DNA from: Armatimonadota bacterium | Lineage (GTDB): Bacteria; Armatimonadota; Fimbriimonadia; Fimbriimonadales; Fimbriimonadaceae | NCBI GenBank assembly: GCA_031400935.1 | Contig: JANNQV010000018.1 | Span: 119,155-139,154 of the forward strand | Reading direction: 5' to 3' | DNA length: 20,000 nt | Part shown: positions 8,101-20,000 of the stretch, one piece after another | How positions within the stretch are numbered: the first letter of the stretch is position 1 | Layout: each line of letters begins with the position of its first letter | Made by a program: the position numbers and the translations under genes | The notes under the pieces: generated by a model | What the model saw: the letters and a program-made list of their open reading frames with translations, nothing else | What the model was told of the DNA's origin: nothing | The model's database searches: none

Positions 8101-8265
8101 GATGACTTGGGTGAAGTGGGTGAGTCGTGAAGTGGATAACGCGTGAAGATCGTAATTAGCTTGATTATTGATTTCAGAGTAATGGTTAGATTGAAACGAG
8201 GCTAACTGACCTGGGTTACTTAACTCACCCAATTCACCCAACTCACCCACTTCACCCTAGTCATC
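8101..8265. repeat. MITE-like element with 25-bp terminal inverted repeats built from 9-bp units
   Basis: GATGACTTGGGTGAAGTGGGTGAGT (8101-8125) versus ACTCACCCACTTCACCCTAGTCATC (8241-8265), one mismatch. The right side has four 9-mers, AACTCACCC AATTCACCC AACTCACCC ACTTCACCC (8222-8257). Confidence 0.85.
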
Positions 8266-11688: not shown

Positions 11689-12078
11689 GTGAAACCTTCA
11701 GTTAACGTCCTCGGCGGACCACTCGAAACTTGCAGCACAAACCCAAAGACCGGATTCTATCGAACGGGTTGCTGTGACACTGGTGCTGACGATCAAGGGG
11801 TACACACTGTTTGTATTATTGCTACCGAGCAGTTCCTTTCATTCAGCATGATGGCTGGAAACGACCTCTCAACCCCGCATCCAGAATGGGAGTTTCCGGG
11901 ACTCAAGCCCGGAGATCGCTGGTGCCTGTGCGCACAAAGGTGGCAAGAGGCATTTGAAGTAGGCATGGCACCGAAGGTCGTGTTAGAAGCCACTCACGAA
12001 TTTACACTTGAGTTTGTCAATCTCGAAGATCTAATGCAGCATTCGCATGTGCCTTTTGCGGGTCCAAGCTCGGGCTAA
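11689..12078 (+). CDS. DUF2237 family protein
   Basis: NVLGGPLETCS...TGFYRTGCC...G.HTVC...GNDLSTP.PE..FPGLKPGDRWCLCA.RW. GTG start at 11689. Its stop overlaps the convergent fucosidase stop. Confidence 0.93.
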   Translation: MKPSVNVLGGPLETCSTNPKTGFYRTGCCDTGADDQGVHTVCIIATEQFLSFSMMAGNDLSTPHPEWEFPGLKPGDRWCLCAQRWQEAFEVGMAPKVVLEATHEFTLEFVNLEDLMQHSHVPFAGPSSG

Positions 12079-15000
12079 TCATTCTGGCGGACCAGCGAAA
12101 CGGATCGAAGGTTCATGAGGGCTCCTCCCGCCATTTTTTGCGCCTTTACAACCACCTTTACTTTGCCACCCGGAGCCAATGCCAGCTTCCCAATTTCAAC
12201 CTTTGTGAACGTTGTCCAACTGCCGGTATCAGGAACGGTGAACGAAAACGGCTTTACGCCGATCAAAACGCCTACTACGTTGCCGGCGCTAGAAGGTTCG
12301 CAGGCAACTTCAGCTGAAAGCTGGAAGTTGCCTGGTTTATCCAATACAAACTGCCACGAGACGACGTCGTTGCTATTGGTCCAAAACCCGATGCACTGTT
12401 TTGATTCGTCTGATTCGTAATGCGCTGAACCTTGAACTTCTGCATCAATCGCCTTCAATATCATGTTGCCATTTGGGTCTGGAACAATTGGCGGCGCAGG
12501 CGGTGTAATCGCAACTAACTTGCCTGTAAATTCGACGACAAACACTTCGGGCATTGGCTCTTTGATGAAGACTTTAGGCTCAGGATTCGTCACTGTCCAG
12601 CCATTCTTTGACTTCACGATCGCAACTCGCTTTTTGTCCAAGAATCTGTATGCTTTGCCAATTTTTCCGTCCAATCCTGTCAATTCGATTGTCGCAAGCG
12701 ATGGGTTGAACAAGTGCAAGTAAAGCTTATTGCCTTTTCGAGTCGCTCGGCCCCAAGGCAGAGGTTTAGCGAACGGACCAGCTTGCGAACCGTAAATCGT
12801 CTCGCCATGCAGCTTCATCCAGGCCCCAACAGCGGCAAGCCTTTGAACGCTTGCTTCAGGAATCTCTCCCAAATTGGTTGGGCCGACATTTAAGAGATAG
12901 TTGCCACCTTTGCTGGCGCAATCAATCACGTTGTGAACCAGTGTTTCAGCGGACTTCCAGCTTTGGTCATTTTTGTGGAATCCCCATGAGCCATTCATAG
13001 TCATGCAGCTTTCCCAATCGAGTCCGGGCATTCCATTTGCCGGAATCTCCTGTTCGGGAGTGCCGTAATCGCCGACCGCTTGGTCGTTTGCACTCATTCC
13101 AGCCATGCCGCTTCGATGGACGTCAACGCGATTATTGATGATGATTTTGGGTTGCAACGAACGAACGTAATGGTAAAGGTCCACTCCCCGTTCATGGGTC
13201 CATGCCTGTGGCTCCCATTCTCCATCGAACCAAAGAATTCCGATATCTCCGTAATTGGTCAGAAGCTCCTTCAATTGTCCCTTCATAAAGACCGTGTACT
13301 TATCCATATTGGTAGGAACTTCTGGCCTAAGATCCCACGGCCTTCGCAGGCCGTAATCTGGATGAGTCCAATCCATGATCGAATGGTAGAAGCAAAGCTT
13401 GATTCCGCCCTCTTTGCAAGCCTTCGCGAGTTCCTTCAAGGCATCACGCTTGAACGGAGTGTTCATGATGTCCCAATCGGTCAGCTTGCTGTCAAAGAGC
13501 GCAAATCCATCATGGTGCTTGCTTGTGATCACGATGTACTTCATGCCCGCATCTTTTGCGATCTGTACCCAGCGCTTGGCATCGTATTTCACTGGGTTGA
13601 ACTGAGCTTGAAGCGGGTGATAATCCTTCGCTGAAATTTGGGCAGAATACATCAGCCATTCGCTGGCTCCAGCGAAGTTCTTGCCTTTCCATTCACCCGC
13701 AGGGACCGCATATAGCCCCCAATGGATGAACATTCCGAAGCGGGCTTCGCGGAACCACGCCATCCTTTTATCCTTTTGAGCCTTTGTTTCGGGCTCCCCG
13801 ACTTGTCCTTTCATAAGCTTCATCATAAAGGTGTTATAGTCCTCAACTGGAATCAGCCCGACTTCGGCTCGCCGAGCATCTAGATTCTTTGGCTCCTCGA
13901 CTGGTTTCATGATCCATTTACTCCCCTCAAGCGAGTTCTGCGTGCCGTATCTCTGCTTTTTGCCTCGAGCACAGAGGACTCGATCGGTGAGCATTGCCCA
14001 ATCAACCCTTTTGACGTCTCCTGTTTGAGCAAGAGGCTCCATGAGCTTCAAGCAATTCTCCTGAAAATCGGGCTCTGCGTCTGCGTACTGCAAGAGAAGC
14101 CAGGCGTTGCTGGCGCCTTCCGTGCCAAAAATCTCTTGAGTCGGCCAACCGTTTTGGTTAACGATTTCCTTCATTCGAGCGGTGTTCGCCTTGTCAACCT
14201 TTGCCATCACGTCGGCCCTCCTCTTTTTCTCTTCAATTGGCATCGTGCCGAATCTGAAATCACCGTGAGCTTTTTGGCTGGCTGCAACCATTGATTTGAT
14301 TTCGGCTGAGATCGCAACGGGAGAACTCAGTGACGTAATTTCAACTTCGTTCGCCCTTGAAAATTCAGGTTCAGAAATCGAAGGGCCGATCCCTAAGTTT
14401 TGATTAGGAAAGCTGGGTTTGTAGATGACCCAAATACATTTAGTCTTGACTGGCTGAAATCGCACGATCCGCTTGTTGCCAATCGTAGTGCCAGTCGCAA
14501 CAGTTGTAGCTTTGCCGTCAATGTAACTTCTGATTTCAAAACTGGTGACATGCTGACCGTTTACGATATGTTCTCTTAGCAACACTCCATCAACATACTT
14601 CTCGACTTTAAGTAGCTCTGGACTTGAATCTTTGCCGAAGGGACCATCCGCTTCTGGTGGACGTCCCGTAGAATTGAGGAAAATTGGATCTTTTTCATCG
14701 CGAGCTCCACGATCTTTTTCATCGCGAGCTTCGCGATGCGAGGCATCCCTCAACTTCTTGAACCCCATCAACGCTTTCACGTCATTCTCATGGATCAGCC
14801 CCCTCCGATCTGGAGGAACGTTGAGAAGCAGCGAGCCATTCCTTCCAACGGACTTCTCGTAAAGTTCAAAAAGCTTCGCTGGGGACTTCACTTGATTGTC
14901 TTGACTTGCATGATAGAACCAGCCTGGGCGAATTGAAACATCGCACTCCGCTGGAACCCAATCTTTGCCCTTTGGATCACCGACGTTCAAATACTTCGTA

Positions 15001-15737
15001 TCAGCAGCGCCGATCGCAGTTTTCGGGCTCGAAAGGTCAACTGTGCTCCAGCAAGTTTCGCCCGCAATTCCATCTTCATTGCCAACCCAGCGAATATCGG
15101 GTCCCGCATCCGAAAAGATCACGGCATCGGGCGCATACTGGCGCACTGTCGAAATAAATAGGTTCCAGTCATAAATTTGCCTTTTTCCGTTCGGCCCTTC
15201 GCCGTTCGCTCCATCGAACCAGACTTCATATACAGGCCCGTATTTGGTTAGAACTTCCTTCAGCATCGCGGCGAAAATGATGTTGTAGCCGGGAGTCCCG
15301 TACTGAGGATGGTTGCGATCCCAGGGCGAAAGATAGACCCCCATCTTCATTCCGTATTCGTCGCAAGCCTTTCTCAGCTCCGCCAAAACGTCGCCTTTCC
15401 CATCTCGCCACTTGCTTTGGGCGACTGTGTGCTTCGAGAAATTCGAGGGCCAAAGGCAAAATCCGTCATGGTGCTTGGCGGTGATAATCACCTGCTTCAT
15501 ACCAGCTTCTTTGAAGGTGCGAACCCATTGACGGCAATCGAGCGCTGTTGGGTTGAAGCTGTTCGGGTCCTCGTTTCCATGCCCCCATTCCTGATCGGCA
15601 AACGTATTTGGGCCAAAGTGGACGAAAGCGTAGTATTCGAGCTTCTGCCATTCAAGCTGGCGCGGGCTTGGGATGGCTGTGCCGCTGTGAATGGTGGATT
15701 GAGACATGGCGAGTGAGAGAAGCAACGAGAGAATCAT
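12075..15737 (-). CDS. Secreted tandem GH29 alpha-L-fucosidase (GH29B-like + DUF6624-like + GH29A-like + C-terminal CBM-like beta-sandwich)
   Basis: Two KHHDGF motifs and two WFDG nucleophile motifs. The first domain has AFVHFGPNTF/PAECDVSIRPGWFYH and the second has FGMFIHWGLY/WESCMTMN/LLNVGP. Short N-terminal hydrophobic signal. Confidence 0.95.
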   Translation of the reverse strand: MILSLLLSLAMSQSTIHSGTAIPSPRQLEWQKLEYYAFVHFGPNTFADQEWGHGNEDPNSFNPTALDCRQWVRTFKEAGMKQVIITAKHHDGFCLWPSNFSKHTVAQSKWRDGKGDVLAELRKACDEYGMKMGVYLSPWDRNHPQYGTPGYNIIFAAMLKEVLTKYGPVYEVWFDGANGEGPNGKRQIYDWNLFISTVRQYAPDAVIFSDAGPDIRWVGNEDGIAGETCWSTVDLSSPKTAIGAADTKYLNVGDPKGKDWVPAECDVSIRPGWFYHASQDNQVKSPAKLFELYEKSVGRNGSLLLNVPPDRRGLIHENDVKALMGFKKLRDASHREARDEKDRGARDEKDPIFLNSTGRPPEADGPFGKDSSPELLKVEKYVDGVLLREHIVNGQHVTSFEIRSYIDGKATTVATGTTIGNKRIVRFQPVKTKCIWVIYKPSFPNQNLGIGPSISEPEFSRANEVEITSLSSPVAISAEIKSMVAASQKAHGDFRFGTMPIEEKKRRADVMAKVDKANTARMKEIVNQNGWPTQEIFGTEGASNAWLLLQYADAEPDFQENCLKLMEPLAQTGDVKRVDWAMLTDRVLCARGKKQRYGTQNSLEGSKWIMKPVEEPKNLDARRAEVGLIPVEDYNTFMMKLMKGQVGEPETKAQKDKRMAWFREARFGMFIHWGLYAVPAGEWKGKNFAGASEWLMYSAQISAKDYHPLQAQFNPVKYDAKRWVQIAKDAGMKYIVITSKHHDGFALFDSKLTDWDIMNTPFKRDALKELAKACKEGGIKLCFYHSIMDWTHPDYGLRRPWDLRPEVPTNMDKYTVFMKGQLKELLTNYGDIGILWFDGEWEPQAWTHERGVDLYHYVRSLQPKIIINNRVDVHRSGMAGMSANDQAVGDYGTPEQEIPANGMPGLDWESCMTMNGSWGFHKNDQSWKSAETLVHNVIDCASKGGNYLLNVGPTNLGEIPEASVQRLAAVGAWMKLHGETIYGSQAGPFAKPLPWGRATRKGNKLYLHLFNPSLATIELTGLDGKIGKAYRFLDKKRVAIVKSKNGWTVTNPEPKVFIKEPMPEVFVVEFTGKLVAITPPAPPIVPDPNGNMILKAIDAEVQGSAHYESDESKQCIGFWTNSNDVVSWQFVLDKPGNFQLSAEVACEPSSAGNVVGVLIGVKPFSFTVPDTGSWTTFTKVEIGKLALAPGGKVKVVVKAQKMAGGALMNLRSVSLVRQND
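14687..14730. repeat. In-frame 24-bp-period duplication (20-bp perfect repeat GATCTTTTTCATCGCGAGCT x2)
   Basis: Copies at 14687-14706 and 14711-14730. They encode ARDEKD twice, just after the first GH29 barrel. Confidence 0.9.
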
Positions 15738-15869: not shown

Positions 15870-16364
15870 TTATTTCTTTAGGGTAGCTCGGAGTGTCTTT
15901 GGCAGGACATCGATAGGTAGCATGTCTGCCAGTTTCTTAGTGATTTTGTAGGTCACAGCCTGCCCTTCAGCCATTCTAACCAGAGTCCCGGCATTGCCTT
16001 CGGCTACATCACCTTTTCGCCACATGTTGAACACAATCTCCTTTGGACAAATTCCTAAGCAAAGCAGGTATTCGTAATTCCTGTCGAGCCGAACATGATT
16101 GAACTGGAACGTTCCTTTGGCTCCCAGTGAAGCGGTTTTGACTTCAAAGCGATGTTGCGCAATGAGCATATCCGTTCTCGCAGTACGACTTCCCTTTTTC
16201 GCTTCAATTCCTGCGTTTGTAACGAAGCGGAGAACAAACTCTTCGCCAATTTCGCCACGGTTCGTATTGCCAAGGAGCCTATATCCTGCCAAAGTAGAAT
16301 CCAGCCAGATATCCTCCGGCGCGTGTTCCTTAATGACCTCTATCAACAGTTCTACGGAAGTCAT
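15870..16364 (-). CDS. Small PD-(D/E)xK nuclease, putative Type II restriction endonuclease
   Basis: GEIGE helix followed by TD-x8-EVK. ATGA overlap with the methyltransferase stop and an AAGGA SD. 164 aa. Confidence 0.75.
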
Positions 16365-17083
16365 TTCGGTCCTTTCCACCGGGATCTACCAGCAGGTTTG
16401 CGAAATACAAGAAAGTAAGAGTGGTTTTTCCTTGCGTGGACCTGTCGAACAACACGGCTCACGCCAGGTTTGTTGTTTCGAACAATCACGAACAGGTCTT
16501 CGCAAACAAAGCCATGAGAGGCAAATTCGTTAATAAGTTCGACATGCGTTAGTCGCTGTTGATTAGCGCAAACTTCGTCTTGGCACTTGACAATGAATAT
16601 CCCGTTCGTCTTGAGAACCCGCTTCGCCTCTTTTGCCGCATCGAAGTAAAGCTCCAAAACTGCTTCATGGTATTTGGCACCCTCACCATTTGACGTACCG
16701 TTGTTCTGGTAGTAGCCTTCGTAGTTTTGGTGGCCTACATGGGCCGTTCCGCCAGGTGTGTGCATGTATGGCGGGTCTAATACAACGCAGTCAATTGAAG
16801 CATCTGAATATGGAAGCTTGCGACAATCGGTTCCAGTCAAAAGATCGGTAGCTTTCAGATTGTAGCGTCCTGGGGCAACAGCTTTCCAAAACACTCCTCT
16901 CCCGTAGGTCACGTCGGCGACGATGCTTCCCTCTGCAACGTAGAGTTCGAGCACGGATGGGAACAGCTCGTCATTTGTGCCGACATGGGCGCTATGGACC
17001 AGGTCGTTGGTGGCGATTCCATTTAGTGCCTTTCGACCTGTTTTCGGTTCTCTGGTTGTGGGAAATTCTAGCAAGGCGCTCAT
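16361..17083 (-). CDS. Amino (N6-adenine or N4-cytosine) DNA methyltransferase, compact
   Basis: SAM-binding motif I variant [26 protein letters not shown] (motif IV), RVLK..G. Start at ATG 17083 (240 aa). The extension to 17188 enters the repeat array. Confidence 0.88.
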
Positions 17084-17167
17084 AGTTAACAGACGTTGTA
17101 CCGCATTCCAATGATGCCAACGACATGCGGGAACGCCTCGTACCCCGAATGGGGCGTGACAAGAAAG

Positions 17168-17377
17168 GTTTCCCACCCGGAACTGCATGATTCCCGGCTG
17201 GAATTGCGAATTCTCCGCCCGGAGCTAGAGGTTTTCCGTTTGGAGCTGCATGTTTTCCGCCTGGAGAAATTGCAGTTCCGCCTGGAGTTGGAGGTTTCCC
17301 CCTCGGAGTCAGCGCGGTTCCCGTCGGAGAATTCGCAGTTCCAGGTGGAAAACCATATGTTCCATCGGGTACAACCA
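17168..17377. repeat. Array of ten degenerate 21-bp repeats with palindromic core TYCC-N4-GGAR
   Basis: Units from 17168: GTTTCCCACCCGGAACTGCAT, GATTCCCGGCTGGAATTGCGA, ATTCTCCGCCCGGAGCTAGAG, GTTTTCCGTTTGGAGCTGCAT, GTTTTCCGCCTGGAGAAATTG, CAGTTCCGCCTGGAGTTGGAG, GTTTCCCCCTCGGAGTCAGCG, CGGTTCCCGTCGGAGAATTCG, CAGTTCCAGGTGGAAAACCAT, ATGTTCCATCGGGTACAACCA. There are no indels. Confidence 0.93.
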
Positions 17378-17400
17378 CTTTTACCTGTGGAGGTACTACA

Positions 17401-18090
17401 ATGCCCGTGTCCTGGCTACCATCAACCGAAGCTGGAAAGCTTCTTTGGCTTCAAAATGCAGCGGCGAAAGTTGCGCTTCACGTCGGACAAGCTGGCATTG
17501 TGGCGGGAGATTCGACCAATTTCAATGGCTGGCTCGCTTGGTACCAATGGATATTGAACCGGAGCGACCAACTGCGGAACAGCGGGATCGAGGTCAACGA
17601 ATTCAAGAGCATCATGTCGGAAGGGCCTGCTGGCACGCCAATGGGCGCAACTCCTGTCGCTCCAGCTTATCCGCCTGCTCCTTTGTTCGTAATTTCGGCG
17701 GATATCTTTGGCCAAATCATCGCTTTTGCAGAGCGGACAAAGAACACGGTTGGCTACAACACGGTGATGGGCGAGGACATCGGGATCGAGCCTGTCGGTG
17801 GGCCGCCTGTGCTTGGCGATCCGACGTTCACACTAACCGCATTGCTTGGCAGCCAGGTTCAAATTGACTGGGTGAAGGCTACGGCGGATGGCGTGATAAT
17901 CGAATCGCAACGCGCTGACGAAGTTGTTTGGACGGTTCTCGCGATTGACCACTTCGCGCCGTACATTGACGCCCGCGGACCGCTTGTCGCTGGGCAACCA
18001 GAAGTTCGCAGGTACCGCTTGCGCTACGAAATCGCTGACGTTCCTGTTGGCGGTTATTCGGGCGTGTTTCAGGTGACTACGATTCCTTAG
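17401..18090 (+). CDS. Hypothetical cytoplasmic protein: helical N-domain, Pro-rich linker, Fn3/Ig-like C-domain
   Basis: Strong SD GGAGGT at 17389-17394 and no signal peptide. The C-terminal pattern V.I.W...G..I..R....W..L......Y.D......YRLRY......G.YS....VT is Fn3-like. Confidence 0.88.
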   Translation: MPVSWLPSTEAGKLLWLQNAAAKVALHVGQAGIVAGDSTNFNGWLAWYQWILNRSDQLRNSGIEVNEFKSIMSEGPAGTPMGATPVAPAYPPAPLFVISADIFGQIIAFAERTKNTVGYNTVMGEDIGIEPVGGPPVLGDPTFTLTALLGSQVQIDWVKATADGVIIESQRADEVVWTVLAIDHFAPYIDARGPLVAGQPEVRRYRLRYEIADVPVGGYSGVFQVTTIP

Positions 18091-18097
18091 TACAACA

Positions 18098-18131
18098 CCT
18101 TCGACCCTTGCTGAGATGTGGGGGTCGAAGG
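18098..18131 (+). terminator. Stem-loop after the 229-aa gene (terminator or mRNA-stabilising hairpin)
   Basis: CCTTCGACCC (18098-18107) and GGGTCGAAGG (18122-18131) form a perfect 10-bp stem, extendable by G-U pairs. There is no U-tract. Confidence 0.5.
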
Positions 18132-18151
18132 ATCAAAAGAGGTGTACGATA

Positions 18152-18565
18152 ATGAGCGGATCAGATGAATGGCGAAAGCTTAATGCTCTAGTAGATGCTG
18201 GACATCTCAAGATTGGCGTACACCGATCGCTATCGCTAGCGATCATCGAGAAAACTGATTTCATTAGACCTCTAATCGGAGTTGCTTGTATAGCTTCTGT
18301 CGTGATTTCCATTGTCCTATGGAAGCTTGGCGTCCATGCTGTCATTTCAGTCTTTGCTGGATTGGGAATTTTCATTGGCACGCCATACTTGTTTTCTGGA
18401 GTTGTCCGGATCCGGGCGGCGCATAAAGCAATCAAATTGCTTCTTGCCGATCGGGATTTCTTTGAAACTTCGTATACGAGTGGTATCGTTACGGTGCTCA
18501 ATGTTGAATCTGCTGAAGTGTTTAAACACCCGAGGGACTGGCCCGAGGCTTTACACGACCTTTGA
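18152..18565 (+). CDS. Hypothetical two-TM membrane protein
   Basis: SD GAGGTG before ATG 18152. Two hydrophobic segments (LIGVACIASVVISIVLW; VISVFAGLGIFIGTPYLF). Confidence 0.78.
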   Translation: MSGSDEWRKLNALVDAGHLKIGVHRSLSLAIIEKTDFIRPLIGVACIASVVISIVLWKLGVHAVISVFAGLGIFIGTPYLFSGVVRIRAAHKAIKLLLADRDFFETSYTSGIVTVLNVESAEVFKHPRDWPEALHDL

Positions 18566-18755
18566 TCTGCGGAGTTGACGGAGAATTTGGTTTGTTGGCA
18601 GATGGACTGAATGGCGGTATTGCCATTGTAACCAGAAAATTAGCGACAAGAGCGGGCTCAGAGCATTGTTCACATAAATTCGACATAATTGTAGAAGTCC
18701 GCTTCTGGCACATTATAAGTCGAAGCCACACGAAAGGGCGGATGTTGGAGAACTC

Positions 18756-19028
18756 ATGAGTTCCACAATTGATACCGCCGGACAACCGGCAAATGACACA
18801 TTCACCAAGACCTTCGAAACCATCGTAGGTAAGACCATTCAATCGGTCGAGCATTTACAAGCCAAGCCTCGAAAGGGCGTTCACAGGACAGAAATTCTTA
18901 TAATTGGTTTCACGGACGAAACTAAGTTAACTGTGGATACTGGAACAAACGTTCATAACGTTTCCGGGGAACACGGAGATTTCGAAGAATCGGAAGTCGA
19001 CGTTTACCTTAGGTGCTTTCCAGACTAG
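18756..19028 (+). CDS. Hypothetical 90-aa protein
   Basis: GGAG SD and a globular-looking beta-rich sequence (IVGKTIQSVE...LIIGFTDETKLTV). Confidence 0.7.
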   Translation: MSSTIDTAGQPANDTFTKTFETIVGKTIQSVEHLQAKPRKGVHRTEILIIGFTDETKLTVDTGTNVHNVSGEHGDFEESEVDVYLRCFPD

Positions 19029-19095
19029 AATCCGCACCCATTGTCGCCTCGGTAACCAAGCGTAGCAAGGATCGAATTGGTGTAGCGTAGCAAAA

Positions 19096-19965
19096 ATGAG
19101 TCCGAAGCCGCCGGAGCCGCTAAAGCCAGACCCTTCAAACTATGGTTTGACTGCGGCGCAAGTCGAGAAAACTGACCGTCTGGAACTCTATTGTAACTGG
19201 GCAGGCTGCATAACAGGACTGCCTATCGCGTCTATCGTGATCTACAGGATTGCTCCCTATGTGATCAGCAAGGAAGGAGGCACTGGACTATTCGGAGTTG
19301 GCTTTGGTGTGATCTTAGCTTCAGTTTCACTTTCCATCGGATTCTTTTACATACTCTTCAGTTTGCTCGGCCTCATAAGCGAACGCTGGATTGCTCCAAG
19401 GTTTTCTAAGCGGTACACCGCAATCAAGAAGTATGAGCTCGACATGGAAGAGTATGAGCGGCTATCCGCTGAGCGAGCAAAGCTCGTCACTGCATTCCAA
19501 GAACGGGAAAGGCAGGAAGAATGGGAAACGCGCCGCAAGGAGCGCGAATTATCCGAAGAACAGCTTAGGCGTAAAGCAAGCTTCTGGCTTGTCCTGGATG
19601 GCTATGAATTCGAGCGTCAAGTTGCCAAAGTCTTTGAGCTTCACGGCTTCATCGCCAAGGTCACGCGAGGCTCTGGCGATGAAGGCGTTGACATTGTGCT
19701 TCTCAAGGGCGGTCAAAAAGGAGTTGTCCAATGTAAAGCGCATGGAAAGGCCGTTTCGCCCGGAACGATTCGAGATATGTATGGCGCCATGCACCATTTT
19801 AAGGCTAATTATGCCGTTGTCGTTTCATCTAATGGGTTTACGGGAGGCTCAAAGACCTTTGCATCAGACAAGCCTGTTATCCTACTTGATGTTTCCGACC
19901 TCATCGCGATACAGGATGGTCAACGCACGTTAGATGAACGAATTGCGAACCTGCTTGATCCTTAA
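19096..19965 (+). CDS. Membrane-anchored Mrr-family (Mrr_cat) restriction endonuclease
   Basis: EFERQVA..F...GF....TRGSGDEGVDIV......VVQCK and SSNGFT. Two N-terminal TM helices and an E/R-rich coiled coil. Confidence 0.9.
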   Translation: MSPKPPEPLKPDPSNYGLTAAQVEKTDRLELYCNWAGCITGLPIASIVIYRIAPYVISKEGGTGLFGVGFGVILASVSLSIGFFYILFSLLGLISERWIAPRFSKRYTAIKKYELDMEEYERLSAERAKLVTAFQERERQEEWETRRKERELSEEQLRRKASFWLVLDGYEFERQVAKVFELHGFIAKVTRGSGDEGVDIVLLKGGQKGVVQCKAHGKAVSPGTIRDMYGAMHHFKANYAVVVSSNGFTGGSKTFASDKPVILLDVSDLIAIQDGQRTLDERIANLLDP

Positions 19966-19979
19966 AAAGCCCCAGTCAC

Positions 19980-20000
19980 AAAAAAGCCCCCGCCATGGGA
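19980..20000 (-). terminator. Probable half of an intrinsic terminator of a convergent gene (truncated by the window)
   Basis: An A-tract followed by the GC-rich arm GCCCCCGCC. The partner arm is outside the window. Confidence 0.35.

Follow-up and report, generated by a model that had tools for sequence, protein, structure and literature searches.

The array and its gene

The window, the whole stretch of 20,000 nucleotides that we analyzed, holds a tandem array of 21-bp units that runs up to a gene for a 229-residue protein. The array, the gene, and their surroundings are arranged as follows.

15870..16379, minus strand: context, type II restriction endonuclease-like gene (PADLOC REase_II, E = 2.5e-12)
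16361..17083, minus strand: context outside the module, divergent DNA methyltransferase (phrog_24333 spans residues 10-230 of the 240-aa form)
17086..17115, plus strand: sigma-70-like promoter match (9/12) upstream of the array, at chance level (2 found vs 0.8 expected)
17168..17377, no strand assigned: array of ten 21-bp units, core TYCC-N4-GGAR, 13-nt linkers in both orientations (window dyad 0.69, p = 0.01)
17378..17398, plus strand: degenerate eleventh unit, in register, whose right half-site is the ribosome-binding site (GGAGG, 17389-17393); likewise in the homologous array L126 of genome G147
17401..18090, plus strand: 229-aa gene, with a predicted helical dimerization domain (about residues 1-130) and an Fn3 domain (135-229)
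18098..18131, plus strand: 14-pair hairpin past the stop codon, without a U-tract (fold at -24.9 kcal/mol)
18116..19965, plus strand: variable downstream genes, namely unknown ORFs of 149 and 90 aa and an Mrr-type nuclease (ORF calls, profile matches)

A column table started at 17168 has C at unit positions 6 and 7 and G at positions 12 and 13 in all ten units, T4 and A14 in nine of ten each, and zero indels, just as a preliminary description of this DNA had reported. The same description put the array's end about 11 bp before the Shine-Dalgarno sequence, and indeed the SD-like GGAGG begins at 17389, 11 nt past unit 10. Phased CC-N4-GG runs at 21 bp are otherwise short in this 2.97-Mb genome: we counted 8419 singles, 35 doubles, 3 triples, and one ten-run, which is the window array and the sole run of more than three units genome-wide. 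The linkers had been said to vary freely. Instead, there are two classes of linker, one the reverse complement of the other, and the best pairs are identical at 12/13 and 10/13 positions; the array thus has two dyad axes per period and inverted units. A longer ORF call for the methyltransferase, with its start inside the array, is probably over-extended.

The hairpin that was said to close the gene does fold as described, but it received no intrinsic-terminator call. Strong post-stop folds occur in 28 of 76 loci and there is none in a second copy of the gene on contig C60 of the same assembly, so the hairpin is a non-fixed part of the module.

Several other features of this DNA were recorded on the way. 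Short intergenic tandem repeats of 11, 16, and 9 bp lie at 127-208, 8108-8148, and 8222-8257 of the window, and many intergenic repeats of 7-bp period occur across the genome. A 1220-aa ORF (12075-15737) reads as two alpha-L-fucosidase-like domains flanking another domain. At 19970-20000 a hairpin repeat that is frequent genome-wide begins, with the contig end inside it; a 31-nt match between C60 and the window end is likewise a frequent repeat. The contig also bears gyrase, tig, clpP, and clpX-like genes, named by reading of their sequences.

Distribution and neighbors

We examined 65 distinct, full-length homologue loci with at least 300 nt of upstream sequence, the window itself among them, along with three copies from the same genome and two pairs of near-duplicates. 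Scored as periodicity above shuffles, a 21-bp array lies upstream of the gene in 56 of the 65 and downstream in 3 of 57. Nine of the 65 have no 21-bp array by the threshold used; one of these, L006, has a 41-bp array. Distant members from the Acidobacteriota and Planctomycetota samples, with profile scores down to 20-45 bits, carry 21- or 42-bp arrays too. A recurring 21-bp period beside homologues, proposed as the check on a coupled system, was therefore found, other phyla included. Separately, an array-less family copy (G000:C17:127772-128452 and L092) keeps its upstream synteny in two species and is possibly domesticated.

The family profile matches 2347 clusters at 50% identity (E <= 0.001), and the named relatives closest to the window gene are Fimbriimonadaceae. 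Members occur in 36 of 228 genomes of the order, with up to 12 matches per genome, and in 5/201, 5/201, and 9/201 genomes of three other phylum samples, counts that take in weak Fn3-only matches. The distribution is patchy and multi-copy and covers at least four phyla. Searches of plasmid and phage collections (tblastn) and of viral contigs gave no family match. A pattern scan of viral contigs did return 40 loci, which we rejected as near-perfect minisatellites within open frames, the family gene being absent.

Among 105 flanking ORFs from 58 loci, 55 have a Pfam match, and no family recurs beyond a few times. The preliminary description had placed the module inside a defense island. That is true at the window but atypical of the family: by our own count a defense-type neighbor is present at 7 of 58 loci. 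We therefore take the methyltransferase, the restriction nuclease, and Mrr as local context, and a defense-specific role is not supported. Nor does a role as an operon leader appear general, since a translationally coupled downstream gene was found at just 8 of 69 loci. Elsewhere in the window's genome, four neighboring ORFs of about 305 aa lie at G000:C32:61939-65693; they encode acidic coiled coils with a heptad period.

Period and symmetry of the array

Array statistics were taken from 45 arrays with a score of at least 35, after two near-duplicates were dropped. The step is nearly fixed: of 524 steps, 501 are 21 bp, 13 are 20, 5 are 19, 4 are 22, and 1 is 23. Arrays have 8-24 units with a median of 12, which the score cut-off biases upward, and the gap from array to start codon ranges from 4 to 524 nt. 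Dyad symmetry is present at p <= 0.05 in 34 of the 45 consensus profiles (mean 0.61, against 0.38 for a mirror control) and was repeated in 15 of 24 further loci; the loci are related, so these p values overstate the case. Periods of 41 and 62 bp are present in some arrays and, together with the 21-bp step, fit the pitch of B-DNA, not codons. The arrays contain no sub-periods of 7, 10, or 11 bp. At one locus (L049), a near-perfect 19-bp tandem array sits between the 21-bp array and the gene, from about 230 to 20 nt upstream of the latter. A 32-bp repeat at L054-L056 is distinct from the array and was set aside as a REP-like hairpin.

Period and symmetry are kept while the sequence is not. Arrays are mostly unrelated between loci, and different arrays in one genome have no common sequence. 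At L044, a relative with 93% identity, TGC replaces the window's TCC, and roughly half of the units have a changed partner arm. The correlation of array similarity with protein identity is weak (rho 0.16): two proteins may be 79-81% identical and still have unrelated arrays, and among 93 close pairs there was no relation to identity of the N-terminal domain. The outcome of a search for specificity residues was rejected: the top column effect of 0.10 (permutation 95th percentile, 0.08) came from positions that lack a plausible pattern, and it was confounded by kinship. Co-variation of core motif with protein clade is thus not supported. In paralogues L100 and L102 of one genome, a 170-nt upstream element and a 100-nt leader are kept around unrelated arrays. 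Given these conserved flanks and the weak correlation with the protein, the array is the fastest-changing part of the module. Conserved elements of 57-173 nt also lie upstream of differing arrays in three groups (L100 and L102; L113, L117, and L122; L007 and L057) and are candidates for a promoter or a left end.

In one alternative, the array would serve as a control region for host factors (RNA polymerase, a transcription factor, or a nucleoid protein), and the protein would be a tightly gated effector of unrelated function. The commonest phased word, GGAA/TTCC, favors this, as it is found in 8 of 45 arrays vs 1.6 expected. However, the sites of one host regulator should resemble each other, unlike the arrays of a single genome, and the same period tracks the family across phyla.

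Is the array coding or RNA?

Since the window array is open in three of six frames, it could encode a peptide with a 7-residue repeat. Stop triplets are also fewer than in column-permuted controls (164 vs 322 sense, 218 vs 372 antisense), and one database protein, P0019, carries the array as an in-frame N-terminal extension. The stop deficit goes together with TA depletion (0.39 of expected) and may stem from it. Against a peptide, a codon-phase test was significant in only 2 of 45 arrays, with p = 0.64 for the window; third codon positions of the window array are invariant despite changing residues; steps of 20, 22, 41, and 62 nt occur; and no open frame is common to arrays across loci. We regard a repeat peptide as highly improbable. 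These comparisons support non-coding selection on the array, in line with the earlier argument that protein coding alone does not account for the conserved positions.

Could the array act as RNA? Either a sense leader or an antisense transcript might form a long imperfect duplex in which any unit pairs with any other, and the dimer would bind this duplex or be regulated by it. The window array is probably transcribed, because it reaches the ribosome-binding site. Relative to dinucleotide shuffles, its sense strand folds with z = -6.5, as a long nested hairpin, and its antisense strand with z = -4.8. The folding excess is the same for both strands. Yet permuting the units leaves the folding as good as it is in the native order (mean z -0.31 sense and -0.45 antisense; window -1.0), in a test that is blind to order-independent duplex. 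Compensation within units is absent (0.64 vs 0.65), and the G+T skew is alike in paired and free columns. Mismatches on the sense strand are more often A.C than G.T (268 vs 191; 21 vs 6 of 34 arrays), so that antisense strands would gain G.U pairs. The step also fits poorly: two A-form turns come to 22, whereas the arrays step by 21, and 20 is commoner than 22. On balance, an RNA role, which might take the form of an order-independent or antisense duplex, seems rather unlikely. The narrower proposal of ten tetraloop mini-hairpins is not supported by the compensation and mismatch results. Nor is there support for that of guide-like units, which match their own genome, the only one searched, no better than shuffled controls. 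Rfam gave no match beyond one chance miRNA match far under cut-off.

The protein

The 229-aa gene is real and under strong purifying selection, as synonymous changes far outnumber non-synonymous ones between the window gene and C60: 52 vs 3 codon differences (pS 0.315, pN 0.0096). The ORF at 17401-18090 does encode an Fn3-like domain, as first described. AlphaFold modeled the protein as a helical N-domain followed by a beta-sandwich (pLDDT 88), and residues 135-229 have the Fn3 fold (Z 11.7, rmsd 2.1, 86 aligned), although this part falls under Pfam fn3 detection. The N-domain has predicted helices at 10-26, 35-74, 102-114, and 121-127; modeled alone, it reached pLDDT 94.6 without a beta-strand. 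We found no clear match for its fold (best Z 5.7, Foldseek none), which does not make the fold new, and none among named Atlas clusters. A viral structure library matched the Fn3 part only. By sequence, 130 family members gave no more than isolated weak matches in Pfam and NCBIfam, and the 229-aa protein matched no PHROGs or PADLOC 2.0 family (PADLOC, 0 at E <= 0.01) and no PDB sequence. We found no longer fused forms of the family protein, which is weak evidence.

We then predicted the complex. A four-copy job scored 0.75, with the best control at 0.20; the mark for this score was attained by 20 of 30 solved pairs against 1 of 23 single chains, counts that are a rough guide for a four-copy job with a custom alignment. 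The predicted dimer interface is symmetric, covers residues 47-104 with residue 58 at its center, and has at least 50% contact agreement between runs and pLDDT of at least 79. The prediction supports a two-fold symmetric dimer formed via the long helix and does not bear on longer filaments. With a pI of 4.7 and a net charge of -8 (family median pI 5.7), the protein is acidic, a point in favor of the host-factor alternative. Conserved basic residues are K23, K69, R112, K114, K159, R171, R192, R203, and R206.

A second family with a duplicated helical domain

A 21-bp array also precedes a gene for a different protein in the window's genome, on contig C46 (G000:C46:12026-13319; L189, L192). This 319-aa protein has a 110-aa helical domain duplicated internally (probability 99.5, E = 6e-23) and an Fn3-like end, with a Pfam fn3 match in 1 of 27 family members. 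Sampled from one order, the second family occurs in 49 of 228 genomes, some of the matches covering the helical part only, and a 21-bp array is present at 24 of 30 loci. Its arrays are less symmetric than those of the first family: 8 of 22 show the dyad, a count that leaves out eight loci below the score cut-off, and the mean is 0.46 vs 0.61 (Mann-Whitney p = 7e-5).

Distant members of the first family link to the first repeat of the second (probability 43, E = 2.4e-4), but direct comparison fails, so homology of the two families is suggestive at the sequence level. Weaker symmetry is what one would expect if a pseudo-dimer relaxes the palindrome. If the family link holds, array symmetry follows protein symmetry, which would be the best indirect sign that the protein is the reader. 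Variation of symmetry with protein architecture also speaks against reading by host factors.

Orphan arrays and signs of mobility

Patchy, multi-copy, and set among unrelated neighbors, the module could be a selfish non-autonomous mobile cassette. The array would be its recombination or mobilization end, and neighbor genes would be captured or swapped at start and stop codons. Homology between module copies does stop at or near the stop codon, and the linkers inside the array are inverted. In the C60 copy, other genes follow directly after the stop codon in place of the window's downstream genes. The first 140 nt of C60 are identical to window sequence, a length one base under the assembly overlap of 141 nt; C60 is thus either a strain allele that follows the same array and has different genes downstream, or a second copy whose 5' part is identical.

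Another locus of the same genome (G000:C62:97462-98862; L191) contains, in order, an array, a leader, a foreign 87-aa ORF, a duplicated 46-nt leader, and the family gene, which runs on into C19 via a 141-nt overlap. The insert is absent from the orthologue L078 in G147. This is suggestive of capture, but leader duplication around an inserted ORF was found at this one locus only. No recombinase or transposase recurs beside the module, with one tyrosine integrase among the 105 neighbors (1 of 58 loci), and plasmid, phage, and viral collections lack it. Empty sites, target duplications, and a conserved left end were looked for and not found; in the empty-site search, of three loci in five genomes each, the flanking genes were non-adjacent in the relatives or were not found there. 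We infer that the module moves among unrelated positions on the chromosome. The selfish-cassette explanation, which is compatible with the one we prefer, is quite unlikely.

Arrays before other genes were the remaining point in favor of host factors. One such array, without a family gene, lies at G000:C32:77169-77377 (L190), 109 nt upstream of a DUF4357/PADLOC PDC-S14 gene, and another is that ahead of the foreign 87-aa ORF, which the duplicated 46-nt leader follows. In L126 (G147:C119:358-593), an array 73% identical to the window's, with its ribosome-binding site and ending at the start codon, runs into a truncated PTS permease gene (EIIC-GAT) that lies on the opposite strand; it is possibly a real orphan array and possibly a chimeric contig. 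Taken with the evidence above, reading by host factors has a low probability.

A proposed mechanism

We propose that the product of the gene behind the array reads the array as a double-stranded DNA element: the dimer would coat its own array and gate expression of its own gene and the variable genes downstream. We put the probability of this reading, in which binding is putative, at roughly 0.45. One dimer would sit on each dyad, and, with each unit spanning two helical turns, about ten to sixteen dimers would lie in a row on the same face of the DNA. They may form a cooperative nucleoprotein strip over the region from promoter to ribosome-binding site, and this strip would autoregulate the gene and the genes behind it, with the Fn3 domains left free for a partner or trigger. 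Recognition would rely on geometry and cooperativity with loose base reading, so that each copy could rewrite its own array fast.

The fixed 21-bp step, the dyad symmetry, the tight upstream coupling, and the non-coding behavior of the array all speak for self-binding. The acidic protein, the weak array-protein correlation, the array-less loci (9 of 65), the gene-less arrays, and the variable gap of 4-524 nt speak against it. Among the options first raised for this locus, phased dyad sites for a dimeric protein is the one that gained ground: symmetry in 34 of 45 arrays, a predicted dimer, and 501 of 524 steps at 21 bp are all consistent with it, as putative binding sites.

A broader conjecture, which we hold to be doubtful, is that a superfamily of small proteins with helical and Fn3 domains reads DNA by lattice geometry. 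Each copy would rewrite a private 21-bp dyad array and assemble a strip on it, as a mobile, trigger-released expression platform that captures foreign genes, defense genes too, at start and stop codons. Array symmetry would be dictated by the make-up of the reader, homodimer or fused pseudo-dimer.

In any case, this is a large family in at least four phyla that has no Pfam or NCBIfam model. A strict cis-element accompanies it, constant in period and symmetry though not in sequence. If the protein reads the array, it would represent a new class of bacterial nucleic acid-binding protein, one based on an Fn3 domain, and would reveal a new rule of protein-DNA lattices. If the array is RNA, it would be a new repeat-RNA system. 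One protein of 230 aa and a DNA fragment of 250 bp would be enough to test self-binding directly.

Comparison with known systems

A literature search, which covered few subscription papers and no TIGR array catalogues, found no description of an array-plus-gene module of this kind. The module is not TIGR-Tas, CRISPR, parC, or iterons. As for an integron cassette platform, with its IntI integrase and attC sites, a tyrosine integrase lies beside 1 of 58 loci. CRISPR arrays have regularly spaced palindromic repeats with variable parts, the latter being unique spacers of about 25-45 nt. In the module, the variable parts are 4 and 13 nt and are related to one another, and cas genes are absent among the 105 flanking ORFs and the window's island genes; the window Mrr protein has a weak Csx1 match (E = 0.002). 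Plasmid iterons are direct repeats for a monomeric winged-helix Rep, phased about two helical turns upstream of a gene. The repeats of the module are phased in the same way, but its units are palindromic, no Rep match was found in the protein or beside the repeats, and there is no plasmid carrier.

As for Fn3 domains in general, residues 135-229 match them, and the module fuses this fold to a helical domain; a shared fold shows no function.

According to the excerpts of the source at hand, TIGR-Tas has an array of about 5-15 units beside one gene, repeats whose sequence is constant within a locus and varies between loci, and a C2 dimer formed via a coiled coil; its unit is 36 nt, with edge and loop repeats and two spacers (PMC12045711). 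To the extent of that account, the layout is alike, with a repeat array of locus-specific sequence beside one gene. Judged by the same excerpts, the module differs in its 21-nt units, which lack alternating edge and loop repeats with two spacers. Its arrays also have no box C/D motif common to loci, and no Nop-domain match was found (Pfam on 130 members; fold lists).

The parC-ParR systems of R1 and pSK41 (type II/Ib), as far as excerpts of the source describe them, have tandem repeats upstream of the operon, along which a dimer oligomerizes to repress its own promoter (PMC5016525). The module has a tandem repeat locus upstream of its gene, as in that partial account, and here too a dimer is predicted. 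No RHH or HTH was found in Pfam, NCBIfam, or the fold lists, though a fold list that lacks a domain does not exclude it. The module differs in having an Fn3 domain, not a motor-binding tail, and in being chromosomal and multi-copy without a plasmid or phage match. The window has no adjacent ParA, ParM, or TubZ gene, and the one ParA-like domain among the 105 flanking ORFs (58 loci) is within a Wzz/tyrosine-kinase protein. By analogy, parC-ParR is most likely the system that the module works like.
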